Below, piece by piece: positions 1,141 to 27,350 of a DNA stretch of 64,000 nt. The notes beneath the pieces were generated by a model. It was not told where the DNA came from. It did no database searches and saw nothing but the letters and a program-made list of their open reading frames with translations. How positions within the stretch are numbered: the stretch's first letter is position 1; each line of letters begins with the position of its first letter. The DNA is taken from the NCBI GenBank assembly GCA_029260495.1, contig JAJDDD010000009.1, forward strand, positions 434,266 to 498,265, read 5' to 3'. The DNA is from Phycisphaerales bacterium (GTDB lineage Bacteria > Planctomycetota > Phycisphaerae > Phycisphaerales > UBA1924). A program made the translations under genes and the position numbers.

Positions 1141-2409
1141 ATGTCTTCGGACCCACAGCAAAAGATTGGCATCCTTATTCCGGAGTTTCCGGGACAAACT
1201 CACATCTTCTTCTGGCGCGAACTGCGCGCACTGCGTGAGATGGGAGTCGATGTTGAGGTGATCTCAACGCGCCGCCCCGAGCGATCGTGGATTTGTCACG
1301 AATGGTCGAAGGAAGCAATGCAGACAACGACGTACCTGCGTGAATCTTCGATCCTCGACATTGCAGTGTCGCTCCGTCAGCTTCTCACCGTAGGCCCGCG
1401 CGGGTGGATCAAGAGCCTGCGCCTCGCGATTCTTTCGGACGCTCCAACTCTTAAGGATCGTCTTCGCGCCATCGCAGCCATTCCCGTCGGCGCTCGTCTC
1501 GCAACGATCGCGCGCCGCCGCGGCCTGGTGCACATCCACGCCCACTCTTGTGGCGCCTCAGCTCTTATCGCGCTTCAGTCAAACCTGCTCGGCGGCCCCT
1601 CATACAGCCTGACTCTTCACGGCCCACTTTCAGATTACGGCCCCGATCAACGCCAAAAGTGGGGGGGCGCCGCCTTCGGCATCATCATTACGCAAAAACT
1701 GCTCGCAGAAATGCGCACGCTCCTCGCTGACGCTCTCCCCGATCGCATCGAAATTGCTCCAATGGGTGTGGAAGTAGATCGCTTCGTGCGCACAACGCCT
1801 TATCAACCGTGGGCCGGTGAGGGCGAGCTGCGCCTCGTTTCCTGCGGCCGACTTAATGCCTGCAAAGGCCATGATGACGCCATCCGCGCCGTTGCCCAAC
1901 TTCGCGGAAAGAACATTACCGCGCATCTGGACATTCTCGGTGAAGGCGCCGAGCGGGCCAAACTTGAAACGCTCATCACAGATCTTGATCTTGCAGATCG
2001 CGTCACACTTTCCGGCGCCATTGCTGAAGAACAGGTGTGCGAGCGCTTGGAGCACGCGCACATCTTTGTCCTCGCGAGTCATCACGAACCACTCGGCGTC
2101 GCCATCATGGAAGCGATGGCGATGCAAACGCCTGTCGTCGTCACCGGCGCCGGCGGGGTGAAGGAGCTGATCGATGATCAAGTCGATGGAATGCTTGTTT
2201 CGCCGCATGATCCACAGGCGCTCGCCTCTGCTATAGAACAGGTCGCTCGCGATCCCGGGCTCGCAGCATCTTTGTCAGCCAGCGCCCGCGCTAAAATCGA
2301 GCGCGACTTTCACTCTCGCCGCAGCGCAGAAACCCTGCTGGGCTTGCTCAACGTCATACCCCGCACAGTGCCTGCCGAAGAGTGCACACCAAACGAGTGC
2401 GCCGCATGA
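1141..2409 (+). CDS. GT4 family glycosyltransferase, resembling the PEP-CTERM/exosortase-associated sugar transferase (stp-like) class
   Basis: N-terminal IGILIPEFPGQTHIFFWRE and HIHAHSCGAS...LGGPSYSLTLHGP motifs. C-terminal GT-B EAMAMQTPVVVTGAGG. It is a paralog of the 11028..12332 product. Confidence 0.8.
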   Translation: MSSDPQQKIGILIPEFPGQTHIFFWRELRALREMGVDVEVISTRRPERSWICHEWSKEAMQTTTYLRESSILDIAVSLRQLLTVGPRGWIKSLRLAILSDAPTLKDRLRAIAAIPVGARLATIARRRGLVHIHAHSCGASALIALQSNLLGGPSYSLTLHGPLSDYGPDQRQKWGGAAFGIIITQKLLAEMRTLLADALPDRIEIAPMGVEVDRFVRTTPYQPWAGEGELRLVSCGRLNACKGHDDAIRAVAQLRGKNITAHLDILGEGAERAKLETLITDLDLADRVTLSGAIAEEQVCERLEHAHIFVLASHHEPLGVAIMEAMAMQTPVVVTGAGGVKELIDDQVDGMLVSPHDPQALASAIEQVARDPGLAASLSASARAKIERDFHSRRSAETLLGLLNVIPRTVPAEECTPNECAA

Positions 2410-3758
2410 GTAAGAGTCGTCCATCCGTCCTGGTTATCGCCGAATCATGCAACCCCGAATGGGTCAGTGTGCCGCTCGTGGGTTGGTTCCACGCTCGCGC
2501 TTTGCGCGAAGTCGCCGACGTTCATCTCGTCACACAGATCCGCAACCGCGATGCAATCTCGCGCACCGGCCTAATCGAAGGCGAAGATTTCACAGCGATC
2601 GATTCCGAACGCGTCGCTCGCCCCGTGTGGAAAATGGCCAACTTCTTCCGCGGCGATTCCGGCAAGGGATGGACCACTGCAACAGCGGTCAGTGCTCTCT
2701 CCTACTACTACTTCGAGCGCCTCGTCTGGCGTCGCTTCGCCGACGACCTCGCAGCCAAACGCTTCGATCTTGTCCACCGCGTCACGCCGCTCTCTCCAAC
2801 CCAACCCAGCACCATAGCTCCCAAATGCGCGCGCCTCGGCGTCCCATTCGTTCTCGGCCCGCTAAACGGCGGCCTCCCCTGGCCCCGCGGTTTTGACGAC
2901 GTTCGTCGGCAGGAACGCGAATGGCTCTCCTATCTTCGCCGCGCCTACAAGCTGCTGCCGGGTCTGAAACGCACCTACCGCGTCGCCTCCGCAACGATCG
3001 TCGCGTCACGCGCCACATTGGACCAACTACCCGCCAGCGCACACGATCGCGCGATCTACATCGCAGAGAACGGCGTCGCGCCGGAACGATTTACCGTCAA
3101 GCGCACCCGGAAAGCTCAGCGCCCCCTGAAACTCCTTTTCCTCAGCCGGCTCGTGCCCTACAAGGGCGCTGACATGCTCATCGACGCCGCCGCGCCTCTG
3201 CTCCAAAGCGGTGACATCCAGCTGGAGATTGCAGGCGAAGGCCCGCAGCGCGATCAACTCACTCAAAAACTCCGTGCGCTCAATCTTGAGTCTGAGTCAA
3301 TCCTCACCGGATGGGTCCAGCATGAAGACGTCCAGCGCAAGCTGATCAAAGCCGACGTCTTTGCCCTTCCCAGCATCCGAGAGTTCGGTGGCGGCGCCGC
3401 GCTTGAAGCAATGGCCGTCGGCGTGCCTCCCATCGTGATCGACTACGGCGGCCCGGCTGACCTCGTCACAGAGCGCACGGGCTGGCTTGTTCCTCTCGGC
3501 TCGCGCGCTCAAATCATCGAGCGCCTGCGCCAAACTCTGGTGCACATCGCGACGCGCCCGGATGTTGTTGACGAAAAAGGCGCCGCCGCGCTCCGGCGCG
3601 CTCATACGCAATTTTCATGGAATACCAAGGCTCAGCAGACCCTCCAGGTGTACGAATGGGTTCTGGGCCGGCGCAGCGACAAGCCCAGCTTTCCACTCCC
3701 CACGCCAGACATCGAACCCAGTCAGGTAGCTCCAGAACCAGCCAGCGCTGCAACATGA
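2406..3758 (+). CDS. GT4 family glycosyltransferase
   Basis: ATG at 2406 overlaps the upstream TGA (ATGA). The longer GTG 2382 start was rejected. GT-B C-terminal domain LEAMAVGVPPIVIDYGGPADLV. Confidence 0.75.
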   Translation: MSKSRPSVLVIAESCNPEWVSVPLVGWFHARALREVADVHLVTQIRNRDAISRTGLIEGEDFTAIDSERVARPVWKMANFFRGDSGKGWTTATAVSALSYYYFERLVWRRFADDLAAKRFDLVHRVTPLSPTQPSTIAPKCARLGVPFVLGPLNGGLPWPRGFDDVRRQEREWLSYLRRAYKLLPGLKRTYRVASATIVASRATLDQLPASAHDRAIYIAENGVAPERFTVKRTRKAQRPLKLLFLSRLVPYKGADMLIDAAAPLLQSGDIQLEIAGEGPQRDQLTQKLRALNLESESILTGWVQHEDVQRKLIKADVFALPSIREFGGGAALEAMAVGVPPIVIDYGGPADLVTERTGWLVPLGSRAQIIERLRQTLVHIATRPDVVDEKGAAALRRAHTQFSWNTKAQQTLQVYEWVLGRRSDKPSFPLPTPDIEPSQVAPEPASAAT

Positions 3759-5203
3759 CCGCTGTCAAACCCATCACAGATCCGCTCGAGCAGCAGACTG
3801 ACCCACCGCTCGAAAGCGATACGCCGATCGAGAACGCCCCAGCCCACGAACAGCCGGCCGGTGACGGCTCACTCAAAAAACGCGCCGTCTCGGGAAGCAA
3901 ATGGACCGCAGCGCAATATATTATCAGCCAGGTTCTTCGCCTCGCGAGCAACATCATCATGGCTCAGATTCTCGCTCCCGAGGATTTCGGTCTGGTGGTC
4001 ATTGTCACGGTCGTCATCACAGGTCTCTACATGCTCTCCGATCTGGGCACCGGTCCCGCCATTGTCCAAAGTGCGCGCGGCGAAGACCCAACCTTCTACA
4101 ACACCGCCTGGACGGTTAATGTGATTCGCGGCCTGTGTATCGCCGGGATTGTCGCTCTGCTCGCGCACCCCATCGCGATCCACTACGGATCTCCCATGCT
4201 CAGCGGCCTGCTCCTCGTCGCGGCCCTCGGGCCATTCATAAGCGCCTTTACATCCACCGCAATTTCTGTCCTCTACCGGCGAATGGACTACGCCAAAATT
4301 ACAATTCTTGAACTGGCAAGTCAGATCGTCGGCATCGCGGTAATGATTGGAACCGGTCTCATCACGCGATCAGTGTGGGCGCTTGTCGTCGGAGCGCCGG
4401 TCAGCGCGATCTTGCTTGTCGTAGCCAGTCACATCGTCGTCAAGGGTCATCACAATCGCCTCAGCTTTGATCGCGCTGCATTCTCAGAGCTATGGCGTTA
4501 CAGCAAGTGGATATTCCTGAGCACCGCAGTCTGGTTCCTCGCCTCCAATGGCGATCGAATCGGTCTTTCCAATCTGATCGATGAGGCGACGCTTGGCGTT
4601 TATTACTTCGCCTTCATGCTCAGCGAAGCCTTTGCCAAACTCGTCGAGACGCTCGCGGGGCGTGTTGGTTTTCCCGCGATATCTGAAATCGCCCGGCGCG
4701 AACCGCATCGGCTTTCCGAGATCTACTACCGCATCCGCCTGCCTCTCGATGCAATCGGTATGACCGCGGCTGGGGGTCTCGTCATCGCTGGCGCCGCCGT
4801 CGTCAACCTGCTCTACAACACCGAGTACGCCGCCGCCGGCTGGATGCTCCAGATACTCGGCATCCGCGTTGCCCTAACCTGCTTATCGGCGACCGCTACA
4901 CAATGTATGCTCGCCGTAGGCCAGTCCAAACAGACCTTCACTTCCAATCTCGCTCGCACTGTCTGGCTTCTGAGCGGCATTATTCTGGGATTTGCATACT
5001 TCGGCGTCCCCGGCGCCGTCTGGGCGATCGCTACCTCGGAAGTCGCCGCCATCTGCGTCCTCTGGATCGCACTCGCCAAGCGCAACCTTCTTCGCCCCGT
5101 CCTTGAGTTGCGATCAATCGCTTTTCTCGCGATTGGCGCTGGCGCCGGGGTGGTCGCTATTCCGATATTGAGCCATCTCGCCACGCTCGTTGGTCGCGCC
5201 TGA
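3755..5203 (+). CDS. Wzx-type polysaccharide flippase (polysaccharide biosynthesis protein / PST family)
   Basis: ATGA overlap at 3755. About 12 predicted TM helices. WTAAQYIISQVLRLASNIIMAQILAPEDFG is typical of Wzx/PST N-termini. The ATG at 3617 was rejected because it lies 141 bp inside the previous gene. Confidence 0.75.
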   Translation: MTAVKPITDPLEQQTDPPLESDTPIENAPAHEQPAGDGSLKKRAVSGSKWTAAQYIISQVLRLASNIIMAQILAPEDFGLVVIVTVVITGLYMLSDLGTGPAIVQSARGEDPTFYNTAWTVNVIRGLCIAGIVALLAHPIAIHYGSPMLSGLLLVAALGPFISAFTSTAISVLYRRMDYAKITILELASQIVGIAVMIGTGLITRSVWALVVGAPVSAILLVVASHIVVKGHHNRLSFDRAAFSELWRYSKWIFLSTAVWFLASNGDRIGLSNLIDEATLGVYYFAFMLSEAFAKLVETLAGRVGFPAISEIARREPHRLSEIYYRIRLPLDAIGMTAAGGLVIAGAAVVNLLYNTEYAAAGWMLQILGIRVALTCLSATATQCMLAVGQSKQTFTSNLARTVWLLSGIILGFAYFGVPGAVWAIATSEVAAICVLWIALAKRNLLRPVLELRSIAFLAIGAGAGVVAIPILSHLATLVGRA

Positions 5204-5222
5204 ATCGGTCTGATTTGATCTA

Positions 5223-6593
5223 ATGTCAACCACAATATTTGTCCCCATCGCGATGTACGGCTGGGCGCCCCTGGTGCTGCTCATGTTCCTCATCATGCCT
5301 CCCCGGCGCGCGGTCATCACCGCCTTCCTTGCTGCATGGCTCTTCCTGCCCATGGCGAGCTATTCGATCGAGGGGCTGCCTGACTGGTCGAAAATGACAG
5401 CCACTTCATTTGGCGTCATGGCTGGTGTCCTTCTCTTCGATCCAGCTTCCCTCTCAGCCTTTCGCGCCAAGATCATTGATCTGCCGATCATTGTGTGGTG
5501 CCTGACTCCCTTCATCGCATCAGTCACCAATGGCTTCGGCGTCTACGATGGCGTCTCCGCGATTGTGTTCAAAACCATCATCTGGGGGCTGCCATACTTT
5601 ATTGGTCGTCTCTACTTCTCTGATCTCGCCGGTCTTCGTGAGCTTGCCGTCGGTGTCTTTGTCGGTGGGCTCGTGTATGCGCCGTTCTGCATTATTGAGG
5701 TTGTTCTATCGCCGCAACTGCATCGCTGGGTGTACGGCTATCATCAGCATCAGTTTGCACAGACGATGAGGCTTGGCGGCTACCGCCCGATGGTCTTCAT
5801 GCAGCACGGGCTCGCTGTCGGCATGTTTATGATTAGCGCCTCGCTGGCTGGGATTTGGCTCTGGAAAACACGCAGTGTGCACAAAGTGCAGGGGATTCCC
5901 ATCGCAGTTCTCCTCGTGCCGCTGCTTATTGTCACTATTGCGATCAAGTCCCTTGGAGCGCTTATTCTCTTGGCTGTTGGCCTCATGGCGCTCGCCGCGA
6001 CGCGCTACGCCCGCACGCGCGCCCTTCTCATTGTGCTCGCGATCATGCCTCCCCTATATATCGCTGCACGAGGATTCCTCGGTTGGTCAGGGCGAGATCT
6101 CACTGCAATCGCGAGTCTGGTGAGCGCCGACCGGGCTGCATCTCTGGAGCACCGCATGGTCAATGAAGACATGCTCACCAATAAAGCCAAGCAGAAAATG
6201 CTCTTCGGATGGGCAAGTTGGGGAGGCAGTCGCGTATACAACGAAGAAGGAAAAGATATCTCAACGACGGACGGCATGTGGATCGTCGCATTCGGCAACT
6301 ACGGCGTCGTCGGACTCTCCGCGTTCATGCTATTCATCGCGCTGCCCGCGTGGGTGCTGCTCCGCCGCGCACGCGCGCCAGCCTGGGCTTCATCCCAGAT
6401 GGCGCCGGCGGCAATCTGCGCCACGCTTCTGCTCCTGTATTCCATCGACAACGTGCTCAACGCCATGATCAACCCGATCTTCGTTCTTATGGCAGGTGGC
6501 GTTGGCGGCTTGGTTTTCGGCGCAAGAACCGCAAGTTCCCGTCGCGCATCCCGGAGTCAGTCCACATTTTCGTATAGCTTGGGTTCAGGGTAG
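5223..6593 (+). CDS. Wzy/O-antigen-ligase-like polytopic membrane protein, possibly an exosortase-associated O-glycosylation ligase
   Basis: Multiple TM helices with a large loop near the C-terminus (NEDMLTNKAKQKMLFGWASWGG...). It sits immediately after Wzx. Confidence 0.6.
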   Translation: MSTTIFVPIAMYGWAPLVLLMFLIMPPRRAVITAFLAAWLFLPMASYSIEGLPDWSKMTATSFGVMAGVLLFDPASLSAFRAKIIDLPIIVWCLTPFIASVTNGFGVYDGVSAIVFKTIIWGLPYFIGRLYFSDLAGLRELAVGVFVGGLVYAPFCIIEVVLSPQLHRWVYGYHQHQFAQTMRLGGYRPMVFMQHGLAVGMFMISASLAGIWLWKTRSVHKVQGIPIAVLLVPLLIVTIAIKSLGALILLAVGLMALAATRYARTRALLIVLAIMPPLYIAARGFLGWSGRDLTAIASLVSADRAASLEHRMVNEDMLTNKAKQKMLFGWASWGGSRVYNEEGKDISTTDGMWIVAFGNYGVVGLSAFMLFIALPAWVLLRRARAPAWASSQMAPAAICATLLLLYSIDNVLNAMINPIFVLMAGGVGGLVFGARTASSRRASRSQSTFSYSLGSG

Positions 6594-6624
6594 ATCACAA
6601 CCGCTGAAGACGGAGCAGCACTGC

Positions 6625-7884
6625 ATGTACCTTGTCGCGATTCACGTTCCCATATTTCTTGACGGCGATCGCCCGCTGATCGCTACCGATTGGTTGCGCT
6701 CCCTCCGGCTGCTGCGCGACTCCTTTTCCGGTCGGTTCGGCCCCATCACCGTCGTCGCGCCCAGCCTTTCCACAAGCCATCCATCCGCAGAGCAGAAGCT
6801 CGAAGCCCCGGCGCCTGATGAAGACATCGTGCTGGAGCCATCCTTCGATTTCAGCGGCCGATGCAGAGATTTCTGGCTCCGTGATCGCAAGCAGTGGATC
6901 GCAGACGTTGATCGCCTGCTGCCAAACGCACAGGTAGTCCACGCAGGCCTCGATGATGTTTTTCGACCGGTCTCATATTCAGGTCACGCCCGCGCCGTCG
7001 CAGCAAACAAGCCCACCGTCTTCGTGCAGGACGTCGATATATCACTCCGCGCCCGACAGCTCGCCACCACACCCGTCGCTGCGATCAAGGCGAATCTCTA
7101 TGCGCTCCACTACGAACGCCTCGCGCGCAAAGGCGTGCAGGCGGCCGATCTCAGCCTTCTCAAAGGCCGCAGCATCATGCGCCGTTTCGCTTCCACCGCG
7201 CGCAACCCGCACACCTTCCACGACACCTCCTACCTCTCATCCGAAATCGTTCCAGCAGATGTCGTCGAGCGCCGACACGCTCGACCGGCTGACAGCCCCT
7301 TCCGGCTCGTCTATTGCGGCAGAATCGCTCGCGCCAAAGGCGTCTTCGAGAGTGTCGATATCATCGCCCGCGCACGCCGCCTCGGCCGCGACATCCGCTT
7401 CGACATGATCGGCGACGGTGAAGATCGCGCTGCGATCGAAAAAATCATCTCCGAGCAAAACCTGGATAGCTACATCCGCTGTCTCGGACCGCAGGCATAT
7501 GGGCCAGAGCTCATCCGCAAACTTGCTGAATGGGACGCCCTCCTCTTCACTCCCCCCGGCGAAGAAACACCGCGCATGATCTTCGATGGGTTCGCCGCCG
7601 GCCTGCCCCTCGTTGCCTTTGCTATCGAATATGTCGTAGAGCGCGCCGACGAAGACGCCGCCGCCTGCTTGCTCCCCAACGACAATCCACAGCAGGCAGC
7701 CCAACTCATCAATGATCTAGCCGCCGATCGGGAAAAGATCGCCAAACTCACCCGCGCTGCACACCAGGCCGCCCACAAACACGCAGCCGATGTCTGGTAC
7801 CAGCGCCGTGCCCAATGGACGATCGAAGCAGTCGAAAAACGCATCGGCGCTGCCAAAACCACAGTCAAGCTCTCCGCTGCCTGA
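6625..7884 (+). CDS. Glycosyltransferase, GT4-like (GT-B fold)
   Basis: First ATG after the Wzy-like stop, with a GGAG 9 nt upstream. The TTG at 6496 was rejected because of overlap. C-terminal LVYCGRIARAKG...GDGEDR...FDGFAAGLPLVAF pattern. Confidence 0.6.
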   Translation: MYLVAIHVPIFLDGDRPLIATDWLRSLRLLRDSFSGRFGPITVVAPSLSTSHPSAEQKLEAPAPDEDIVLEPSFDFSGRCRDFWLRDRKQWIADVDRLLPNAQVVHAGLDDVFRPVSYSGHARAVAANKPTVFVQDVDISLRARQLATTPVAAIKANLYALHYERLARKGVQAADLSLLKGRSIMRRFASTARNPHTFHDTSYLSSEIVPADVVERRHARPADSPFRLVYCGRIARAKGVFESVDIIARARRLGRDIRFDMIGDGEDRAAIEKIISEQNLDSYIRCLGPQAYGPELIRKLAEWDALLFTPPGEETPRMIFDGFAAGLPLVAFAIEYVVERADEDAAACLLPNDNPQQAAQLINDLAADREKIAKLTRAAHQAAHKHAADVWYQRRAQWTIEAVEKRIGAAKTTVKLSAA

Positions 7885-7902
7885 AATATTGCATAAGTCA
7901 CA

Positions 7903-8976
7903 ATGCCCACCGCGCTGCAAAAATCTCCCATGACGACGGACGAGCCAATCAATCCCGCTATCTCCGCCAGCGTATGCCGCGCCGCCGATCGCCTCCTCGT
8001 CGTCATCGTCAACTTTCACACCGCTGAACTAACCATCGACGCCCTGCGCTCACTTGCGCCCCATCTCGAGCCCGCTCGCGACGCCGTCGTCGTCGTTGAC
8101 AACGACTCCGGCGATGACTCTGTCCAGCGCATCAGCCAAACAATCGAACAAGAGCAACTCTCAGACGTCGCATCCGTCATCCCCGCCGGCTGCAACGGCG
8201 GCTTTGCGTTTGGAAACAACGTCGGCGCCAAACTCGCCTTCGCCGATGATCCCCATCCCAAATACATCCTACTCCTCAACCCCGACACGCTCGTCCACGA
8301 CGGCGCCATCCAGCACATGCGCTCCTTCATGGATACTCACCCTCAAGCAGGCATCCTCGGCTGCAAGATTGAAGACCCCGACAGCGTCGAACAAACAGCA
8401 GCCTTTCGTGCGCCGAGTCCGCTTTCCGAAATGGATTACGGCTTCCGTTCTGGTCCAATCTCCCGTGCACTCTCCCGCTGGAGTGTCTCGCTCGCGCCGG
8501 CGCAAAACGCCATTCAGTGCGATTGGGTTTCCGGCGCCTGCATGATGATCCGCTGCGACGTCATCAGCAAAATCGGCCCGCTCGATGAAGGCTACTTTCT
8601 CTATTACGAAGAGCTCGACTACTGCCTCCGCGCGCGCGACGCTGGCTGGGAAATCTGGCACACCCCCGCCGCAACCATTACACACTTCGAAGGCGCAGCT
8701 ACCGATATCCACGCCGCCCGCAAACGCCGCCCGCGATGGTGGTATGACTCCCGCCGTCGTTTCTTCGTAAAACGCTACGGAACCCTCGGCCTTCTCACCG
8801 CAGACGCCCTATGGGCGATCGGCCGGTCATTCCTGCATTTGCGCCGTCTGCTTCATCTCGGCGGAGATGTCTCCTGCGATCCAGCCCATCTTTCACGTGA
8901 TCTTCTCGGCGGCGACCTTCGCGCCGTTCTTTCCGGAGAAACCCGGCGAATCAAGCTGCAGGCGGTGAAAAAATGA
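7903..8976 (+). CDS. GT2 family glycosyltransferase (WbbL/rhamnosyltransferase-like)
   Basis: LLVVIVNFHT, VVVVDNDSGDDS, GFAFGNNVG and WVSGACMMIRCDV...YYEELDYCLRA motifs. Confidence 0.75.
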   Translation: MPTALQKSPMTTDEPINPAISASVCRAADRLLVVIVNFHTAELTIDALRSLAPHLEPARDAVVVVDNDSGDDSVQRISQTIEQEQLSDVASVIPAGCNGGFAFGNNVGAKLAFADDPHPKYILLLNPDTLVHDGAIQHMRSFMDTHPQAGILGCKIEDPDSVEQTAAFRAPSPLSEMDYGFRSGPISRALSRWSVSLAPAQNAIQCDWVSGACMMIRCDVISKIGPLDEGYFLYYEELDYCLRARDAGWEIWHTPAATITHFEGAATDIHAARKRRPRWWYDSRRRFFVKRYGTLGLLTADALWAIGRSFLHLRRLLHLGGDVSCDPAHLSRDLLGGDLRAVLSGETRRIKLQAVKK

Positions 8977-9971
8977 AAGCCGGCGTTATCATCATCGGAC
9001 GCAACGAAGGAGAGCGCCTCATTCGCTGTCTCGATTCACTCGCGACCGCGCGCAAGAACGGCTCGCTTCTGGTTTACGTTGACTCCGCCTCCTCAGACGA
9101 CAGTGTCGAAACATCCCAAACTCGCGTAGATCACGTCATCGCGCTCACCAATGACAAACCTCTCTCCGCAGCCCGCGCTCGCAATGCTGGCATCTCCTGG
9201 CTCCTTGACCACGACATTGACCTCATTCAGTTCATCGATGGAGACTGCGAACTCCATCCGGATTGGCTCGCCCGCGCTGCCGCAGCTCTGGAACAGAACA
9301 CACAAGCCGCGATCGTCACGGGCCGCCTGCGCGAAAAGCATCCCGATCGCTCGCCCTACAATCGCCTCTGCGATATGGAATGGGATTGCGGCGTCGGTGA
9401 GATAGAAGCGTGCGGCGGTGTATTCTTCGCCCGCGCACAGGCAATCCACGATGTCGGCGCCTTCCGCGAAGACATTCCCGCTGGTGAGGAGCCGGAACTC
9501 TGCTTGCGCCTCCGCACCGCTGGCTATACGGTTTTTGCAATTGACGCTCCCATGGCTCTGCATGACGCTGATCTCATTTCGTTTTCCCAGTGGTGGCGTC
9601 GAATGACGCGCACCGGCTATGCGTTCGCGCTCGGCGCCTCGCTTCACGGCGCCGGTCCCGAGCGACACTGGGTTCGTCACGCGCTTCGCCCCTGGCTCTG
9701 GGCCGTCATTCTTCCGTTGCTCGCGATCATCCCCGCCTGGCCAACCGCTGGACTCAGCCTCGCCGTTCTCCTCGCGTACCCAATACAGTTCCTGCGCATC
9801 ACCAAGGACCGCCAATCGCGAGGGGACTCCGCCTCGAGCGCACGCCTCTACGCCTTCTTCACCCTGCTTTCCAAGTTTCCCGAAGTCATCGGACAGACTC
9901 GTTTTTACTTCGAGCGGTTCACCGGCAGATCACCCAGCATCATCGAACACAAGAAAGCCTGCGTCGTCTGA
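8973..9971 (+). CDS. GT2 family glycosyltransferase
   Basis: ATGA overlap at 8973. MKAGVIIIGRNEGERL...VYVDSASSDDSVE GT-A N-terminus with a DxD-like FIDGDCE. C-terminal TM helices. Confidence 0.7.
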   Translation: MKAGVIIIGRNEGERLIRCLDSLATARKNGSLLVYVDSASSDDSVETSQTRVDHVIALTNDKPLSAARARNAGISWLLDHDIDLIQFIDGDCELHPDWLARAAAALEQNTQAAIVTGRLREKHPDRSPYNRLCDMEWDCGVGEIEACGGVFFARAQAIHDVGAFREDIPAGEEPELCLRLRTAGYTVFAIDAPMALHDADLISFSQWWRRMTRTGYAFALGASLHGAGPERHWVRHALRPWLWAVILPLLAIIPAWPTAGLSLAVLLAYPIQFLRITKDRQSRGDSASSARLYAFFTLLSKFPEVIGQTRFYFERFTGRSPSIIEHKKACVV

Positions 9972-11020: not shown

Positions 11021-11027
11021 GCCCAAC

Positions 11028-12332: not shown

Positions 12333-12333
12333 T

Positions 12334-14962: not shown

Positions 14963-14963
14963 C

Positions 14964-19667: not shown

Positions 19668-21109
19668 ACTCGCTGCACGAGAGCGTGGTGATGCATCAGA
19701 GGCCGGCTGAAATTTCAGCGGATCGGTGGTCACGCGCCCATACTCGAGTGTGGGGGCTTTCCATTGAGGAAACCCATGATCGTTATTGGGCTTCCAAAGG
19801 CGTGCAGGTTGTGCGGCCTGGCGGGGCGGCGGTGATTGGCCGGGGCCCGATGCTGTACCTGCTTCTTCGGCGTGGCGAGCTGGTGCTGTTCAAATTCGCA
19901 CCTGTGGTCAAGCGGCTGAACTGGATTCGATCGCGCGCGATGCGTTTACGGATCGTTGATCTGGACGCGGACTCCTATGTTGAGCGGGTGATTGCAGATG
20001 ATGATGGCGGATTTATTGCGATTCGCAGGGACTACAGCGTCGAGACGCACGGCTCGACGCGCGCCGCGGTCACAGGCGAAGCAAAGCTTGCGCGGCAGTG
20101 GCGCGATGCGGACAACGCGCGGGAGGGATGGCGAGCGATTGTTGCGCGAGCGGGGGCGGATCGGACGAGTGTGCATCGTTGCGTGGGGCGGATATTTGAC
20201 GCTGAGGATGATGAATCGCTTGAAGAGTGTCTGACAAGCCTGATGCAGCGGTGGAAAAATCCAACGCTGGGTTTGGATGGCGTTTATGAGTTCATGCCTG
20301 GCGTTCTTTTGCATGAGTCTGCGGAAGTTGAATCTGGAGCAGTGCTGCTGCCTCCGGTGTGGATTGGAGCCGGTTCGCGCATTGGTGGACAGGCGGTGGT
20401 CGTTGGGCCAACTCTTACGCCCGATGAGCCTGATGCCCAGCCAACACAGCGGGAAGTATCGTGGGAGCGGATTCAGTATCCCGGTTGGCGTCCGACACCG
20501 AGGTTGCGCGGGCGATGGTTCCGCATGAGCAAGCGCGTGTTTGATATTGGTTTCAGCCTTGCGGTGCTCGCGGCAACGGCGCCGATCTATCCAATCGCAA
20601 TCGCGTTGATTTTTCTGGAGGATGGGTGGCCGCCCTTTTTTGCGCACAGGCGGCAGACACGGCGGGGGCGAACGTTTCCGTGCTACAAGTTTCGCACGAT
20701 GTCTCGCGGGGCGGATTCAATGAAGGAGGAACTGGAAGCGAGCAATGTCTGCGACGGGCCGCAGTTCTATATAGAGGTAGACCCGCGTGTGTCGAAGGTT
20801 GGCAAGTGGCTTCGGCGGTTTCAGATTGATGAACTACCACAGTTTTGGAATGTGTTGCGCGGGCATATGAGCGTCGTTGGGCCGCGCCCGAGCCCGGACA
20901 GTGAAAATCAGTATTGTCCTGCGTGGCGTGAGGCGAGGCTGAGCATTCGGCCTGGTGTGACGGGCCTGTGGCAGGTGCGGCGCACGCGGGAGCCTGCGAC
21001 GGATTTTCAGGAGTGGATTCGGTATGACCTTGAGTACGTTCAGCATGAGAGCTGGCGTCTGGACCTTTGGATCATTCTCAAGACGATTGGGAAGGTCATC
21101 AAGAGCTAG
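19664..21109 (+). CDS. Priming sugar-1-phosphate transferase (bacterial sugar transferase family, WbaP/EpsE-like) with an atypical ~285 aa soluble N-terminal domain
   Basis: GTGA overlap start. The C-terminal ~195 aa (RVFDIGFSLAVL...KFRTM...DELPQFWNVLRGHMSVVGPRP) is the conserved catalytic domain. The N-terminal domain has no TM helices and an LbH-like stretch. Confidence 0.8.
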   Translation: MNSLHESVVMHQRPAEISADRWSRAHTRVWGLSIEETHDRYWASKGVQVVRPGGAAVIGRGPMLYLLLRRGELVLFKFAPVVKRLNWIRSRAMRLRIVDLDADSYVERVIADDDGGFIAIRRDYSVETHGSTRAAVTGEAKLARQWRDADNAREGWRAIVARAGADRTSVHRCVGRIFDAEDDESLEECLTSLMQRWKNPTLGLDGVYEFMPGVLLHESAEVESGAVLLPPVWIGAGSRIGGQAVVVGPTLTPDEPDAQPTQREVSWERIQYPGWRPTPRLRGRWFRMSKRVFDIGFSLAVLAATAPIYPIAIALIFLEDGWPPFFAHRRQTRRGRTFPCYKFRTMSRGADSMKEELEASNVCDGPQFYIEVDPRVSKVGKWLRRFQIDELPQFWNVLRGHMSVVGPRPSPDSENQYCPAWREARLSIRPGVTGLWQVRRTREPATDFQEWIRYDLEYVQHESWRLDLWIILKTIGKVIKS

Positions 21110-21118
21110 GAACGAGCT

Positions 21119-24100
21119 ATGACGAATCGGGCGAAAAAAAGACTTTTGCTGTTGGGTGTGTCGGTTGTCATCGCGGGCGGCGGCGTGGTGGGATTGCAGC
21201 AACTGCGCAATATACAGTCTGCGCGCACACTGAAGTCGAATTTTGAAGAAGGGATGGCGGCGCACGAAGCAGGGCGTCATAAAGATGCCTCTACAAAGCT
21301 CTGGTATTATGTGACTGTCGCGCAGTCGGACGACGTGGATGGTGAAGCTCTGCTCGCGTTTGTCGAGAGTCGCCGGCAGACACCGGACGAGAACGGAAAG
21401 CATTTGCTTGAATCAATCCTGGTGGCGAAACGCGCAAGGGATTTAATGCCGAGCGACGTGCGGCCGCTTGAGCATTTGCTTGCGCTATATGGCATAACAG
21501 GGCAGTTTTCGGAACGGCTGGACGCTGCGAACCGATTGCTCGCGATTGATGACAAAAATTACGAAGGGATGAAGGCGAAGATCTCGTCATTTTGGCGATT
21601 GGGCGAGCGTGATCAAGCTCTCCAGGTTGCGCAGTCGATGGCGGAGGTGTACGAGGATGACATTTTTGCGCATTCCTTGGTCTTGCAGCTTTATGAGGAT
21701 CTCGACAAGCCAAAGCGCGAAATGCTGGATTATGCGCAAGCGGTCTCGAAGAAATACCCGGACGATGCGCGATTCACACTTCTTGTCGCGCAGGTGCACG
21801 CGGCTGCGAATGAAGATCAGAAGGCGAGGGAGATCGCGCAACAGGCTCTTGGGATGGATATTTCCGACGCGGTGACATTGCGGGAGTTGCTGCTCGTGCT
21901 CGACCGGCTCGGTATGACCGCTGAGGCGGCGGCGGTGATTGACCGAGAGACGGCGAAGGAAGGTGTGAGTGATGAGTTCTATGCGATCGCTGCGGAGCGG
22001 GCGTGGAAGGAGTCGCGCATCTCGAAGTCGCTCGAGTACATCAGGCGGGCGTCAGTTGATCCGGAGTCGGCCAAGGATAACGTCCTGGGATGGCGGGCGT
22101 TCCTTGAACAAGGAGCGACGGATGTAAGCGAGCGTGAGAGTATTGTTGAAATTCTGCGCGGGCGGGGAACTCCGGAGGCAGCGACGTGGATTTCATTGCT
22201 TCGGGCGCAGGATGCGATGGCGCAAAGCGATTGGGCGTTAGCGCAGGAGGAGCTGCGCACAGCGCAGACGACAGATGATGGAAACTCGCTCGCCATCTAC
22301 ATGATGGGTGAGACTGAGCGCCGGCTGGGCGAGTGGCGGGCCGCGATTGAGCGCTGGGGTGAGCTGCGCAAGACCGAGCCAACGTGGGTTCGCTTGCATG
22401 TTGATTTGGCCTCTGCGCTGCTCGACCATGAGTTCCCTGCTGAGGCGTACATCATCGCGGCGCGTGGGGCGCAGGTGGCGCCGAACCAGGTTGTGATGGC
22501 GCCTGTGCTCGCGCGGGCTTCTATGGAAGTGATCGAGCGCCAGATATTGACGGGAACGGAAGCTGAAACTCCGCTGGCGTTTCTTGAAGAGCTACGAGAG
22601 AAGCTTCCTCCATCGGGATTTGTACAGTCGCTTTTGGCGCGGGCGTATGCAGCTTTAGACAGGCCGGCCGAAGCGAAGGAGGCCATTGAAGTTATTTTCA
22701 AGAACGATCTTGAGGCGCCATCTGACTCGCTGGGGCCGCTCCTTGCGATGAACAAACGGTATGAATGGGGGTTTGCCGAGCAGATTCGTGCGGTGAGTCC
22801 GGAATCGCCCGCGAGTGTATTTACGCTGGCGATCGAGGCGCACCAGGCAGGTGACACGAAGGCAGGAATGCGCATGTTGCGCAATGCGGTCGAGTCGCAC
22901 GAAGGCGGCGAGCGGCTGGCGTATGAGCTTCGTCTCGCGGCGTATCAGGATCTTGTAGATGCGCCAGAGGCATTGGAGAATTTGAGCCGGATCGGCGCGG
23001 ACAACCCACAGTCAGCTGAAGCGCAGCGGCTGGTGCTCAACTCACGGGCGGCCTGGCGGGATGAAAAGATCGTCAGCTCCGCGATCGCGAGCTTGCGGAA
23101 TCTGGCTGGGAACAAGTCATCGCTCTGGCGCGTCGCGGAAGCGCGGCGACTGTTGACGTTTAGCGATCCGAACAATCCGAACGATCGGCAGGACAAGGCT
23201 GCCCGCGTCGTCAACGACGTATTGAAATCGGTCATTACGAATGATCCGCGGGCAGGGCGGGCGCATGAGCTTGCTGCTGAAGCCTGGCTTATTCTTGATG
23301 AACGCAATAACGCGATCCATCACCTGGAGCTTGCGCTCGCGGCCCAGCGCGATGCGATACGTCTGTATCCAAAGCTGATTTCACTCTTTCAGCAAGCAGG
23401 CGATGCGGAAGGCGCAAAGCGGTATCTTCAGAAGTTTTCACAGCAAACAAACATCACTCCTGAAATGCAACGACGGCGAGCTGCGCTGCTCGTTTCGCAG
23501 AACATGATTGATCCAGCGATGGATGATTTTCGCAGCCTGGCGCAGGCGGGCGACGTGAGAGCACAGGTTTCGCTGGCTGCATTGCACTCTCGCCTGGGTG
23601 AGGTCGGTCAGGCAAGAGAGATGTACGAGCAGGCGCTGAGGCATGATGACGAGTTGGCGCCTTTTGTCGCGGAAGCTGCTGCGGAGTATTTTGCTTCGCA
23701 AGGCGAGATGGATCGAGCGCGCAGCATTTTGACCGAACATCTCAAGGATGCGGGACGCGAGGGGATGCTGGCCGCGCTGCTCATGAGGCACGGTCTTGCC
23801 GGTGAAGCTGAAGATATTTACACCCGCTTGGCGCAGTCTGAAAACTCGGGGGCAGCATGGAGCGATCTTGCCCGATTCTACCTTTCACAGCGGCGCGTCG
23901 ATGAGGCAGAGCAGGCAATTAGCCAGGGGCTTGCCGTAGCGCCTGATGATGAAAATCTTATACACACAGCGAGCATGGTGTCCATGGCGGGCGGTGAGGA
24001 GATCGCAGCAGAGGGGCTCTCTGATGCGCTGACCGCGTTTGGACTCGATCCGGACAGTCGCTCGGGCATCGCGCTTCAGGAGGCGCTGGATCATATCCAG

Positions 24101-25297
24101 GCGAACCCGACGGACCTTGACGGCTACATTGACCGGCTGCGTCGACTGGTGGAGCGAGATGCGACGTTTTATCCAGCCTGGCAGATGCTTGTGCAAGCCC
24201 ATATGCGCAAGGGTGATGTTCCCTCGGCGCTGGAGGTTGCGCAGTCCGCGACTCAATCACTTCCAGCTGACCCACGTCCGGCGAAAATGGTGACCGAGCT
24301 TCTCATGCGCCAAGGGCGCACGGATCAGGCGATTGCAGCGGCGAAACTGTGGCGCGAACGCGCGCTTGCGAATCCGTACCCCACCGATCTGCTAATTGCG
24401 CAGTTGAATGACCGAATGGGTCGTTATGAGGAAGGACTTGGATGGCTGGCGCCCTACCGTGATCGGATTATTCGTGAAGGAGACACGGCGCCGACGCCTC
24501 TTGAGTTGCTCGCATCGTTGCACGCAGGAGCCGATCAAGAGGAGATTGCTCTTGAGTTGCTTTGGGATCGGGCCCAGGAAAGTCAAGCGTGGCGGGGAGG
24601 GTACCTCCGCGCCGGCTATCGCATGTTTGATCGCCCGGCCGAGGCACGGGAGTGGTTTGAGCGCGTGACGCCGCTCATGCTCAGCACAACTTCAGAACGA
24701 ATCGCGATGGGGCGGGCTTGGTATGACCTTGGCGTGCAGCATGTGACCAGAGAGGACTTCCAGCGCACGGTGGACATCGTTGAGCCGGCGCTGGATGATC
24801 CGGACGCGCGTGGGGCGGCTGCGGCGTTTTGTGCTGCGTGCTATGAGCAACTGAATCAGCCGGAAGAAGCGGAGCGGCTGTATCGGGTTGCAATCAGTGA
24901 AAATCCGGGCCAGGCGGATCTCAAAAACAATCTTGCGTTTCTGATTCTGACGCAGGGCGGCTCGCTGGAAGAGGCGTTGGCGCTCGCGACGAGCGCGACA
25001 GAATCCTCGTTGAACATCGCGACGTTCTTCGATACGAAAGGGCAGGTGCTGTTCAAACTCGGGCGGGCGGAGGAAGCTGAGACAGCGTTCCGCCAGGGGC
25101 TGGAGATTGATCCGGCGGATCCCTTGCTCCTGATCGGCCTGGCGGAAGCGTTGCATGCGCAGAAGGAGTTCGGCGAAGCGCAGCGCGTGCTTTCGCTGCT
25201 TGAAGCCATGAACAACTTTCGGTCCGGGCTGAGCGGTGATCTGACTGCTCGCTACAACAGTGTGAAGAGTCAACTTCGCGCCAGTGGGGGGGATTGA
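21119..25297 (+). CDS. Very large TPR-repeat protein (1392 aa) with an N-terminal signal anchor. PrsT-like PEP-CTERM-system TPR protein.
   Basis: AGGAA RBS. KKRLLLLGVSVVIAGGGVVGL anchor. Repetitive A/L/E/R-rich TPR-like helices throughout. Sits adjacent to the exosortase core. Confidence 0.7.
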   Translation: MTNRAKKRLLLLGVSVVIAGGGVVGLQQLRNIQSARTLKSNFEEGMAAHEAGRHKDASTKLWYYVTVAQSDDVDGEALLAFVESRRQTPDENGKHLLESILVAKRARDLMPSDVRPLEHLLALYGITGQFSERLDAANRLLAIDDKNYEGMKAKISSFWRLGERDQALQVAQSMAEVYEDDIFAHSLVLQLYEDLDKPKREMLDYAQAVSKKYPDDARFTLLVAQVHAAANEDQKAREIAQQALGMDISDAVTLRELLLVLDRLGMTAEAAAVIDRETAKEGVSDEFYAIAAERAWKESRISKSLEYIRRASVDPESAKDNVLGWRAFLEQGATDVSERESIVEILRGRGTPEAATWISLLRAQDAMAQSDWALAQEELRTAQTTDDGNSLAIYMMGETERRLGEWRAAIERWGELRKTEPTWVRLHVDLASALLDHEFPAEAYIIAARGAQVAPNQVVMAPVLARASMEVIERQILTGTEAETPLAFLEELREKLPPSGFVQSLLARAYAALDRPAEAKEAIEVIFKNDLEAPSDSLGPLLAMNKRYEWGFAEQIRAVSPESPASVFTLAIEAHQAGDTKAGMRMLRNAVESHEGGERLAYELRLAAYQDLVDAPEALENLSRIGADNPQSAEAQRLVLNSRAAWRDEKIVSSAIASLRNLAGNKSSLWRVAEARRLLTFSDPNNPNDRQDKAARVVNDVLKSVITNDPRAGRAHELAAEAWLILDERNNAIHHLELALAAQRDAIRLYPKLISLFQQAGDAEGAKRYLQKFSQQTNITPEMQRRRAALLVSQNMIDPAMDDFRSLAQAGDVRAQVSLAALHSRLGEVGQAREMYEQALRHDDELAPFVAEAAAEYFASQGEMDRARSILTEHLKDAGREGMLAALLMRHGLAGEAEDIYTRLAQSENSGAAWSDLARFYLSQRRVDEAEQAISQGLAVAPDDENLIHTASMVSMAGGEEIAAEGLSDALTAFGLDPDSRSGIALQEALDHIQANPTDLDGYIDRLRRLVERDATFYPAWQMLVQAHMRKGDVPSALEVAQSATQSLPADPRPAKMVTELLMRQGRTDQAIAAAKLWRERALANPYPTDLLIAQLNDRMGRYEEGLGWLAPYRDRIIREGDTAPTPLELLASLHAGADQEEIALELLWDRAQESQAWRGGYLRAGYRMFDRPAEAREWFERVTPLMLSTTSERIAMGRAWYDLGVQHVTREDFQRTVDIVEPALDDPDARGAAAAFCAACYEQLNQPEEAERLYRVAISENPGQADLKNNLAFLILTQGGSLEEALALATSATESSLNIATFFDTKGQVLFKLGRAEEAETAFRQGLEIDPADPLLLIGLAEALHAQKEFGEAQRVLSLLEAMNNFRSGLSGDLTARYNSVKSQLRASGGD

Positions 25298-25349
25298 AAA
25301 TGTTATTCGTGGGGCGCATTGATTGTTGCTGTGTTTTCGGAAGGAGTCG

Positions 25350-26123
25350 ATGATGAAGGGTGTCATCCTGGCGGGCGGGCTTGGAACCAGGCTGCGCCCG
25401 CTGACGCTTGTGACGAATAAGCATCTGCTGCCGATCTACGATCGGCCGATGATCTACTATCCGATTCAATGCCTGCTGAACGCGGGGATTGATGAAATCC
25501 TTCTGGTGACTGGTGGTGAGCACGCGGGAGACTTTCTCAAGCTCCTTGGCAATGGGAAATCGCTTGGCATCAAGGAACTGCACTACACCTATCAGGAAGG
25601 TGAAGGAGGCATTGCTGATGCGTTGTCGCTGGCGGAAGACTTTGCAGACGGTGGAAAGATTGTCGTAATTCTGGGTGACAACATTATCGAACGCAATATC
25701 GCGCGGGCGGCAGAGGACTTCTCCACGCAGGCAACCGGCGCCAAGATTCTGTTGAAGGAGGTCGCTGATCCTGAGCGGTTCGGCGTCGCGCGGGTTGAGG
25801 GCGAACGAGTGGTGGAGATCGTTGAAAAGCCCGAAAACCCAGCATCGCGCCTCGCGGTGACAGGCATTTATATGTACGACAACACCGTTTTTCAGATCGT
25901 TCGCGGCGTTAATCCCAGCGATCGCGGAGAGCTTGAGATAACGGACGTTAATAATGCGTATATCAAGCGAAGCGATATGACGTACGAAACGATGGCTGGC
26001 TGGTGGACGGACGCAGGGACGTTCCAGAGCCTCTACCGGGCGAATCAGATGGTCGCTGAGGGCGGAGCCAATCATATGGATGCGGCGGCGCCCAAGGCGG
26101 GGAAGGCAGCGTCGATAGCATAA
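25350..26123 (+). CDS. Glucose-1-phosphate thymidylyl/uridylyltransferase-like sugar nucleotidyltransferase (RmlA-like short form)
   Basis: GGAAGGAG RBS then ATGATG. MKGVILAGGLGTRLRPLT...KHLLPIYDRPMIYYPI is the canonical RmlA N-terminus. Confidence 0.8.
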   Translation: MMKGVILAGGLGTRLRPLTLVTNKHLLPIYDRPMIYYPIQCLLNAGIDEILLVTGGEHAGDFLKLLGNGKSLGIKELHYTYQEGEGGIADALSLAEDFADGGKIVVILGDNIIERNIARAAEDFSTQATGAKILLKEVADPERFGVARVEGERVVEIVEKPENPASRLAVTGIYMYDNTVFQIVRGVNPSDRGELEITDVNNAYIKRSDMTYETMAGWWTDAGTFQSLYRANQMVAEGGANHMDAAAPKAGKAASIA

Positions 26124-26160
26124 GCACGCGTACTTGATATCCCATAGTTATCACACTTAA

Positions 26161-26197
26161 CGGAGCTCCTCGCGATGGCGGGCGGCTCCGTTTTTTT
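26161..26197 (+). terminator. Rho-independent terminator ending the EPS operon
   Basis: CGGAGC...GCTCCG stem followed by seven T residues, 38 nt after the RmlA-like stop. Confidence 0.6.
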
Positions 26198-26570
26198 ATG
26201 CGCACAAATCCATTGGCGGGTTCTCGGACATACGAACCATGTTGGCAAGTGAAAACAATCGACTGATAACAAAGATGTTGCACAACTGCGCGCACTGGCG
26301 CTGGACGTTCACTGGGGCGCGTATATCTCTTGGGCAGCGCAGGTAAGAGAGTTGTCAACTTTATCAGAGGCCCCTGTGGGAATAGCGAATCTGGCGCGAA
26401 TATGCCGGCGCTGAATCTGCAAGAGGCTGGCGAAACGGTTGACCACTCTCAGCCCTGGTGTACTTAGAAGTAAGTGACTGACTTTCGGCGAGCGTCACCG
26501 ACTCATGCTCGCTTCATGTATTTCTGATCCCGTTTACCGGCGCTGTGTCGCCCGAGTCGGACGGGGAGCA

Positions 26571-27350
26571 ATGGAGAAGTTAGAAATGAAAAATGGGATC
26601 ATTCTTAGTGTTGGAGCGGCTGCACTGCTTGCCTCTGCGGGCGCTGCGCAGGCTGCGACCGCGAGCATCGACGGTCTTGGTGGCGAAGTTCAGATCGTGT
26701 CCGGCGTTATTGACGGCGTGTTCGGCACATCGTCGCCCGATATGTCGCCCAGCGCCCTTGCGAACATCCATGGAACGCTGATGGATGACGGCATTGAGAC
26801 GAATGGCAAGGTCACCAGCGTTTTCCTCGAAACCGATAACGGGCTCGCATGGGTCATTCTCGTTGACAAGCAACTCTTTGGCGACGACGATCGCGGTGGC
26901 CCCGCGGCGAGCCTTCTCTTCGCGAGCACAGCTGACGGCGATAAAGATCCCTTCATCAACGATGATGAAGAAATGGAAATCGCAGTGTTCGGCGGTGGAC
27001 TTCAGGCCGCCAATGGTCAGTTCAACTGGAACTCCGATGGTGAGGGCGATGGCTTCGCCTGGGCTGGTCTTGAGCCTGGTGACTTCATGACCTTCCAGTT
27101 CGAGGAAATCAAAAGCATCACCACACAGCGCGGCGGAACGGCTCCAACCTCCCCGGGTCTGGACAGCACCGATACGTTCCAGTTCGCCTCATGGACGGGC
27201 GATTCATTCGAACTGATGCCTGACATGGGCAGCTTCTCGATCGACAATCAGTTCGCTTACAGCGTGACGATTCTTCCGCTGCCGCAGCCCGCGATGCTCG
27301 GCCTGGCGGGTCTGGCCGGCCTCGGCGTGATCCGCCGTCGCAAGGCCTGA
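26571..27350 (+). CDS. Secreted PEP-CTERM domain protein (putative exosortase substrate), acidic and Asp/Gly-rich
   Basis: Signal peptide MKNGIILSVGAAALLASAGAAQA. C-terminus TILPLPQPAMLGLAGLAGLGVIRRRKA is a P-x-P motif, hydrophobic helix and Arg cluster. An alternative start is 26586. Confidence 0.75.
   Translation: MEKLEMKNGIILSVGAAALLASAGAAQAATASIDGLGGEVQIVSGVIDGVFGTSSPDMSPSALANIHGTLMDDGIETNGKVTSVFLETDNGLAWVILVDKQLFGDDDRGGPAASLLFASTADGDKDPFINDDEEMEIAVFGGGLQAANGQFNWNSDGEGDGFAWAGLEPGDFMTFQFEEIKSITTQRGGTAPTSPGLDSTDTFQFASWTGDSFELMPDMGSFSIDNQFAYSVTILPLPQPAMLGLAGLAGLGVIRRRKA

Follow-up and report, generated by a model that had tools for sequence, protein, structure and literature searches.

Here we describe an exosortase-containing polysaccharide locus in a stretch of 64,000 nucleotides from a Phycisphaerales bacterium (contig JAJDDD010000009.1 of assembly GCA_029260495.1), referred to below as the window. 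Nineteen open reading frames (ORFs), g01 to g19, lie consecutive and tightly packed on the plus strand between positions 1141 and 26123, and a twentieth gene, g20, encodes a small secreted protein beyond the array (Table 1). If genes were oriented at random, the chance of nineteen co-oriented genes would be about 2^-18. Families were assigned by scanning the locus proteins with Pfam and NCBIfam hidden Markov models (HMMs) against their curated cutoffs. In our reading, which we consider probable, the locus is a Wzx/Wzy-type assembly line for an exopolysaccharide (EPS) or capsule with a dedicated exosortase module at its centre.

Table 1. Genes and structural features of the exosortase-containing locus (window coordinates)
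Feature	Positions	Strand	Evidence or remark
Very stable hairpin 5′ of g01, in the 119-nt gap 1022-1140	1055..1121	+	-49 kcal/mol, z -5.8, 0/200 shuffles as stable
g01, GT4 glycosyltransferase, Myxococcus EpsE-type	1141..2409	+	NF041876 530.8 bits (cutoff 400); PF00534 128 bits
g02, GT4 glycosyltransferase, EpsH-like below cutoff	2406..3758	+	NF041879 508.6 bits (cutoff 800); PF00534 106 bits; ATGA overlap
g03, Wzx / MOP-family flippase	3755..5203	+	PF13440 173.5 bits; NF007773 135 bits; 11 hydrophobic segments
g04, Wzy_C-type membrane protein with 10 transmembrane (TM) segments (polymerase or ligase)	5223..6593	+	PF04932 E 0.014; 10 TM-like segments
g05, GT4 glycosyltransferase	6625..7884	+	PF13692 52.6 bits; PF00534 48.1 bits
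g06, GT2 glycosyltransferase	7903..8976	+	PF13641 64.8 bits; rhamnosyltransferase TIGR01556 59 bits (below cutoff)
g07, GT2 glycosyltransferase, EpsD-like below cutoff	8973..9971	+	PF00535 56 bits; NF041875 62.5 bits
g08, protein without assigned family, one N-terminal TM segment	9971..11020	+	
g09, GT4 glycosyltransferase, EpsE-like paralogue	11028..12332	+	NF041876 243 bits, model 1-389 matched end to end
g10, membrane GT2 glycosyltransferase, EpsU-like below cutoff	12334..13632	+	NF041865 196.8 bits; PF00535 65 bits
g11, WecG/TagA/CpsF (GT26) glycosyltransferase	13629..14468	+	PF03808 194 bits; TIGR00696 153.9 (cutoff 69)
g12, small cupin, FdtA/WxcM/RmlC-like sugar-nucleotide enzyme (weak)	14465..14962	+	PF14667 29.6 bits; PF05523 18.4 bits
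g13, divergent sugar-1-phosphate nucleotidylyltransferase-like protein, Rossmann-like and left-handed beta-helix (LbH) domains	14946..15911	+	AlphaFold2 (AF2) model, Foldseek, synteny
g14, exosortase of no curated subtype	15908..16774	+	PF09721 175.1 bits; TIGR02602 129.6
g15, EpsI, N-terminal TM anchor and periplasmic domain	16775..17470	+	PF11984 50.1 bits (cutoff 26.1); TIGR02914 37.7 (cutoff 42.8)
g16, Wzc-like polysaccharide co-polymerase (PCP-2a), 2 TM, coiled periplasmic domain, P-loop ATPase	17463..19667	+	TIGR01007 88.7 bits; TIGR03017 66.9 bits; TM 35-53, 426-444
g17, priming phosphoglycosyl transferase (PGT), PglC/WbaP-type monotopic domain (aa 284-480) and N-terminal NTP-transferase/LbH-like domain	19664..21109	+	PF02397 195 bits
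g18, 1392-aa tetratricopeptide repeat (TPR) protein, N-terminal membrane anchor	21119..25297	+	many TPR families; TM 9-27; kept in relatives
g19, RmlA-type sugar-1-phosphate nucleotidylyltransferase	25350..26123	+	PF00483 197 bits; TIGR01208 234, TIGR01207 233 bits (below equivalog cutoffs)
Intrinsic terminator (hairpin + T7) closing the array	26159..26199	+	folding, shuffles
g20, small secreted protein, signal peptide and C-terminal sorting tail ILPLPQP-AMLGLAGLAGLGVI-RRRKA	26571..27350	+	presumptive exosortase client

The nineteen plus-strand genes had been proposed in a first-pass annotation of the same DNA and are borne out by the ORF calls, as is its list of start/stop overlaps, every one of which is present in the sequence. 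These are ATGA overlaps at 2406, 3755, 8973, 14465 and 15908, a TGATG junction at 9969-9973 and a GTGA overlap at 19664, to which a second GTGA at 13629, missed at the time, can be added. Genes g14 and g15 abut as TAGATG (16772-16777) and g15 overlaps g16 by 8 nt (17463-17470), giving a series of core-gene junctions of ATGA, TAGATG, 8-nt overlap and GTGA. Gaps between likely starts and stops within the array are at most about 31 nt and thus leave no room for intergenic terminators; a generic terminator scan inside the array returned no more matches than it did in shuffled sequences. The single terminator claimed for the array end is a GC-rich hairpin of 9 + 5 bp at 26159-26192 followed by T7 (-23.8 kcal/mol, z = -3.0), with one of 200 shuffles equally stable. 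At the other end, the hairpin in front of g01 marks the 5′ boundary of the array and could be either the terminator of the preceding ORF 80-1021 or a regulatory leader structure. A search for sigma-54 promoters (TGGCAC-N5-TTGC, up to two mismatches) found fewer matches than in shuffles, and none in either intergenic region.

The polysaccharide assembly genes are largely those first proposed. The HMM scans recover the priming transferase g17 and exactly eight further glycosyltransferases, namely four of family GT4 (g01, g02, g05, g09), three of GT2 (g06, g07, g10) and one of the WecG/TagA type (g11), together with the Wzx flippase, the RmlA-like sugar-nucleotide enzyme g19 and, in g16, a Wzc/GumC-like protein of PCP-2a architecture whose P-loop domain is present (TIGR01007 at 88.7 bits against a cutoff of 108). 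The Wzy-like protein fares less well: PF04932 spans the whole profile on g04 at 15.6 bits (cutoff 31.7), one homologue reaches E 7.6e-6, and a PDB sequence search with g04 gave nothing below E 0.2; the assignment is weak. The description of g18 as PrsT-like comes down to generic TPR similarity (TIGR02917 at 148.7 bits against 312.2) in a protein with an N-terminal membrane anchor and no lipobox. The cupin g12 is kept at 56-65% identity in closer relatives. For g08 there was no Pfam or NCBIfam match, no tblastn match in related loci, and nothing below E 0.2 in a PDB sequence search.

The exosortase assignment of g14, whose failure had been named in advance as a refutation of the whole proposal, is secure at family level, as is that of EpsI. 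PF09721 and TIGR02602 exceed their cutoffs (25.7 and 105.55, respectively), and so does the TIGR04178 signature (57.9 bits, cutoff 23); a crude scan finds seven hydrophobic segments. Across 20 diverse homologues of 56-71% identity, C186 (in AEACNGMRM), R190, R231 and H251 are invariant, and because Cys186, Arg231 and His251 are among them g14 looks like an active enzyme. No exosortase subtype model reaches its cutoff on g14: XrtA (TIGR03109) gives 131.2 bits against 208 and XrtD (TIGR04152) 115.6 against 400, and XrtW, XrtV, XrtB, CrtA-C and other subtype models score below these two (CrtB, 48.9 against 300). Public annotation of the homologues likewise carries the generic exosortase name only.

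The gene adjoining the array encodes the presumptive client. The likely start of g20 is 26571 or 26586 (MEKLEMKNG..., a signal peptide) and not 26505; about 450 nt and the terminator part it from the array, which makes it a separate transcription unit. Gly, Asp, Ser and Thr are abundant in the protein, whose C-terminus reads VTILPLPQP-AMLGLAGLAGLGVI-RRRKA, a tail with the architecture of PEP-CTERM lacking the glutamate. It falls below all curated sorting-signal models, with PF07589 at 20.4 bits against 20.7, VPLPA-CTERM (TIGR03370) at 15.4 against 25.35 and no match to TIGR02595. The label of PEP-CTERM substrate given to g20 in the first-pass annotation is therefore not supported, the tail reading PLP with no Glu and all three models having missed it. 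An exhaustive search with g20 yielded a family of 112 clusters, 93 of them with an intact basic C-terminus. A PxP motif is present in 91 of these 93 tails, where x is L in 42, A in 23, T in 13, S in 5, I in 3, V in 3 and G in 2, and is never E. The Glu of PEP is near-invariant elsewhere (Haft et al., PMC1569441), and its complete absence from the g20 family sets this tail apart as a variant signal, to which VPLPA-CTERM comes closest among those known.

The same tail recurs at the same position in other genomes. At least 18 of 35 related loci carry, directly after the TPR/RmlA gene and on the same strand, a signal-peptide protein of 210-260 aa with a tail of the form [VI][VI]P[LT]Pxx-hydrophobic-RRRR. 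The 35 are the loci in which 1.3 kb or more is available past that gene, and most of the remainder among them are cut short where the retrieved sequence ends. These downstream proteins belong to several mutually unrelated sequence families, so that position and tail are what is conserved. In some relatives two client genes with PxP tails follow the TPR gene in tandem (at 19233-20243 in related locus L057 and 13404-14686 in L033).

These results bear on the simplest alternative, that the locus is an ordinary XrtA/PEP-CTERM (EpsH) system as described by Haft et al. 2006, new only in its phylum. XrtA is indeed the best-scoring subtype model for g14 and PrsT the best NCBIfam match of g18, the kinase, chain-length and sugar-transferase models of the XrtA system match weakly, and PF07589 misses the g20 tail by only 0.3 bit. 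Every model of that system nevertheless lies far below its cutoff, including, besides XrtA (131 vs 208) and PrsT (149 vs 312), the tyrosine autokinase TIGR03018 (79.8 vs 230.65), the chain-length determinant TIGR03007 (22.7 vs 278.85) and the sugar transferase TIGR03013 (140 vs 393.35). The tail goes unmatched by TIGR02595 and never has Glu in its motif. No PrsK/PrsR-type regulator pair occurs in the window or beside the locus, neither intergenic region has a sigma-54-type -24/-12 match, and g18 has no Cys lipobox, unlike the TPR lipoprotein PrsT. We regard this alternative as quite unlikely; the locus lies outside both the canonical XrtA/PEP-CTERM and the XrtD/VPLPA-CTERM systems.

Homologues of g14 number more than 770 at 55-71% identity, all of about 288 aa, and where named they come from metagenome-assembled genomes of Phycisphaerales or Phycisphaeraceae. 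These names agree with the Planctomycetota origin suggested earlier and place the host in the class Phycisphaerae. A g14 relative is encoded in 319 species-representative genomes, including cultured strains such as Phycisphaerales bacterium ac7 and genomes assigned to Phycisphaera and Mucisphaera. A tblastn comparison of all 20 proteins with related loci of at least 15 kb shows the order g13-g14-g15-g16-g17-g18 kept on one strand in nearly all of these loci, in about 50 genomes, often with g11 and g12 upstream and, in closer relatives, g19 downstream. Genes g01-g10 find only scattered matches of 27-45% identity, sometimes on the opposite strand, and independent gene calls with precomputed Pfam labels on two long contigs give the same pattern. 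On this comparison the locus is a conserved core (g13-g18, often with g11, g12 and g19) joined to a variable cassette of glycosyltransferases, Wzx and Wzy (g01-g10). With core order kept and g01-g10 patchy, it resembles capsule and O-antigen loci, in which fixed machinery is combined with a replaceable chemistry cassette. In the cultured Poriferisphaera sp. WC338 (L078, NZ_CP194516.1) a TPR-like gene directly follows the exosortase and EpsI genes with no Wzc-like or PGT gene between them, a reduced or rearranged core. A 5384-bp Logan contig (L001, SRR15505519), independently assembled and of identical sequence, starts 38 nt before g11, near the boundary of cassette and core; its start point may reflect strain variation upstream.

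Two members of the core appear to have a fold in common. Gene g13, annotated as hypothetical everywhere and always directly 5′ of the exosortase gene, gives an AF2 model with a pLDDT of 88.5 whose top Foldseek matches (E 1e-13 to 1e-11) are tlr0611, GDP-mannose pyrophosphorylases and ADP-glucose pyrophosphorylase (AGPase), all combining Rossmann-like and LbH domains; its glycine-rich loop is shortened (AGGLRPxPL). The g17 family is full-length at about 477 aa. Residues 284-480 match PglC and WbaP structures (WbaP 8t53, 5e-33), and the first 280, in the predicted model, retrieve the nucleotidyltransferase/LbH structures also matched by g13, including 8x7s and 7d72 (GMPPA/B). BLASTP of g13 against the g17 N-terminus gives one marginal match in the LbH region (E 0.045), the common fold being visible by structure prediction only. 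Gene g13 and the N-terminal domain of g17 (19664-20500) always co-occur. Enzymes of this fold are often heteromers of catalytic and regulatory subunits, as in GMPPA/GMPPB, AGPase and eIF2B. From the predicted structures, g13 and the N-terminal domain of g17 may form a heteromer that couples precursor supply or sensing to initiation. A literature search on fusions of PGT and nucleotidyltransferase domains found no paper in the library that was searched.

From the observed gene content, catalytic-residue conservation, synteny and tail motif we infer the following biochemical steps. NDP-sugars would be supplied by g19, the cupin g12 and possibly g13, and the monotopic PGT g17 would place the first sugar-phosphate on a lipid carrier. 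The eight glycosyltransferases (g01, g02, g05-g07, g09-g11) would then build a large repeat unit to be flipped by the Wzx protein g03 and polymerised by the Wzy_C-type g04 with the Wzc-like co-polymerase g16, while the membrane-anchored g18 could serve as a periplasmic scaffold. The variable cassette g01-g10 would set the chemistry of the polymer. The g20 protein would leave the cytoplasm through Sec and stay anchored in the inner membrane through its C-terminal PxP motif, helix and RRRK tail, until the exosortase g14, with its Cys-Arg-His residues, and EpsI g15 cut off the tail and release or transfer the protein to the cell surface or the polymer. Processed g20 probably ties the polysaccharide to the cell, as do the PEP-CTERM proteins of floc-forming Betaproteobacteria. 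The mode of action is most likely that of the XrtA/PEP-CTERM EPS systems, in which pepA and prsT are required for floc formation and PepA shifts EPS from the soluble to the bound form (PMC9850573). Similarly, CrtB of Nostoc is required for export of PEP-CTERM proteins to the exoproteome and for adhesion to polysaccharide (PMC12188702).

Several observations weigh against this proposal. The export step is left unexplained by the content of the locus: no Wza-like outer-membrane polysaccharide export (OPX; PF02563) protein was found among the 20 locus proteins, 30 other scanned window proteins or two annotated relatives (L083/L084), although an OPX protein may be encoded elsewhere in the genome. 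For this reason the earlier statement that every element of an EPS pathway is present was too strong. The co-polymerase g16 has no C-terminal Tyr cluster of true bacterial tyrosine kinases (no Tyr in its last 70 aa); 67 of 73 homologues have no Tyr in their last 40 aa while keeping the P-loop ATPase. Just one tail-bearing protein is visible in the 64 kb, and its role as a dedicated client is presumptive. Internal promoters may exist within the array. The Wzy assignment of g04 is weak, PF04932 also including ligases, and the GC skew changes sign inside g09. The last two points each underlie alternative explanations.

If g04 were a WaaL/PglL-like ligase, the locus could be an O-antigen or protein-glycosylation system, in which the glycan does not end as a free polymer but is moved from its lipid carrier to lipid A-core or to the PxP-tail protein. 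The inclusion of ligases in PF04932, the weak match of g04, the composition of g20 and the published proposal that PEP-CTERM proteins are glycosylated (PMC1569441) are all consistent with such a role. However, a PCP-2a co-polymerase with an ATPase domain, as in g16, is typical of EPS and capsule and not of O-antigen, and g04 belongs to the variable cassette and is missing from many loci that keep the core, where a ligase serving the client would be expected. A ligase system thus appears improbable.

The skew at third codon positions (GC3) of the plus strand runs from -0.15 to -0.58 in genes up to 11020 and from +0.36 to +0.59 in genes at 12334-25297, all of them on the same strand, with the change of sign at about 11.4-11.7 kb, within g09. 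Over the window the skew is negative at 80-11020, strongly positive at 12334-25297, about zero at 26.5-43 kb, negative at 43.5-51 kb and positive at 52-64 kb, tracking blocks of DNA and not gene orientation; among related loci all overall signs occur, as do several internal switches. A replication origin was considered as the cause of the switch and rejected, the window having several switches and the one in g09 sitting in an intact gene. The flip suggests that the two halves of the array have different histories. Our best guess from the sequence is a mosaic history in which parts of the locus have been exchanged between lineages, which fits the variable-cassette picture.

Different histories could also mean that, in place of a single operon, two or more adjacent modules with separate promoters make up the array, a cassette at 1141 to about 12300 and a core from about 12300 to 26123. 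Besides the skew change, the replacement or inversion of the upstream part in relatives whose core stays, and the start of the Logan contig just before g11, point this way. The junctions, with gaps of 7 nt and 1 nt and a 4-nt overlap, nevertheless leave no intergenic space, the array has no excess of terminator-like structures, and the order g07-g09-(g10)-g11 recurs in other genomes; a modular evolutionary history is in any case compatible with a single transcript. We consider separate modules rather unlikely, though less so than either alternative above. A misassembly near 11.5 kb, which would make the array a chimera, is far less probable still. The skew change within g09 is sharp, and a look-up of the exact g09 protein sequence found none on record in other assemblies. 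Yet g09 is an intact, full-length GT4 enzyme, the gene order across the junction recurs in at least 10 other genomes, and switches of this kind are also seen in unrelated assemblies, one of them a complete chromosome (L021).

Returning to the exosortase-coupled assembly line, we tentatively suggest, at a little below even chances, that it is the type locus for an exosortase system that spans the order Phycisphaerales and is so far uncurated. Such a system would have its own Glu-less signal, (V/I)(V/I)-P-[L/A/T]-P followed by a helix and RRRR, a client gene directly after the operon, and a fixed six-gene core in which the pseudo-nucleotidyltransferase domain of the PGT possibly pairs with g13, as GMPPA does with GMPPB, and so gates initiation. 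Export would proceed without a locus-encoded OPX protein, possibly via the giant TPR scaffold.

Exosortases are abundant and poorly understood, both in the acceptor of their presumed transpeptidation and in the fate of their clients. The locus offers a compact setting for their study, with one exosortase translationally coupled to a co-polymerase and a priming transferase, one client gene adjoining, and a core kept in hundreds of Phycisphaerales genomes. Clients with a PxP tail lacking Glu receive no label in current annotation, because the tail scores below the cutoff of every curated sorting-signal model. Members of the Phycisphaerae occur commonly in marine particles, sediments and wastewater, and the polymer may for that reason matter for aggregation.

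The surroundings of the locus contain further genes of possible relevance. The co-directional upstream ORF 80-1021 (+) contains the motif EFSNECWN, which recalls clan-A glycoside hydrolases, and its product may be an EPS-associated hydrolase; it has no Pfam match, and a PDB sequence search gave nothing below E 0.2. Candidate regulators within 30 kb are a GGDEF diguanylate cyclase (51938-53125, -), a sigma factor of the extracytoplasmic function (ECF) type (32930-33568, +) and a Ser/Thr kinase (35251-36714, +). Sugar-nucleotide genes scattered outside the operon, for an NAD-dependent epimerase/dehydratase (34362-35516, -), a DegT-type aminotransferase (47514-48695, +) and a phosphomannose-isomerase-like protein (48729-49775, -), could feed the locus. 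A pseudopilin-type N_methyl protein is encoded at 37668-38759. The Hc1-like gene reported in the first-pass annotation did not reappear in a search for Lys/Ala-rich ORFs with crude composition filters.

Among known systems, the XrtA/PEP-CTERM/PrsT system also has an exosortase in an EPS locus beside a chain-length/kinase protein, a priming sugar transferase and a large TPR protein (PMC1569441; Zoogloea and Aquincola, PMC9850573), with small secreted clients that end in P-x-P, a helix and an Arg-rich C-terminus and have a probable role in binding the polymer to the cell. The present locus differs in that all marker models stay below cutoff, the near-invariant Glu is missing from the motif and no PrsK/PrsR or sigma-54 signature is seen. 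Its TPR protein is membrane-anchored and not a lipoprotein, it has no Wza-like exporter, EpsI is encoded by a separate gene, and the PGT carries an extra NTP-transferase-like domain. The XrtD/VPLPA-CTERM system (TIGR04152, TIGR03370) is alike in its hydrophobic-P-L-P motif without Glu, and XrtD is the third-best model for g14. However, XrtD joins exosortase and EpsI in one protein of 486 aa, whereas two genes are found here, and on the VPLPA-CTERM model the tails reach 12-17 bits, below its cutoff.

The Eps pathway of Myxococcus xanthus resembles the glycosyltransferase side of the locus: g01 passes the EpsE equivalog cutoff, and the EpsH, EpsD, EpsU, EpsA and EpsZ models are the best or near-best for g02, g07, g10, g11 and g17, although all but EpsE match well below cutoff. 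To our knowledge the Myxococcus EPS pathway has no exosortase. It uses a pair of exporters, an OPX protein and a beta-barrel. Cyanoexosortase B of Nostoc punctiforme (PMC12188702) belongs to a different subtype model and has many clients scattered through the genome, and it is not embedded in a polysaccharide operon.

The case first made for novelty is weak, since PEP-CTERM/EpsH was reported in Planctomycetes in 2006 (PMC1569441) and Stieleria has been noted to carry a PEP-CTERM gene in an EPS region (PMC7293339); that a system has not been experimentally characterised in the phylum holds for most systems. Compared with these precedents, the locus type is widespread in Phycisphaerales, differs in detail from the textbook version and extends a known theme while overturning no current ideas.

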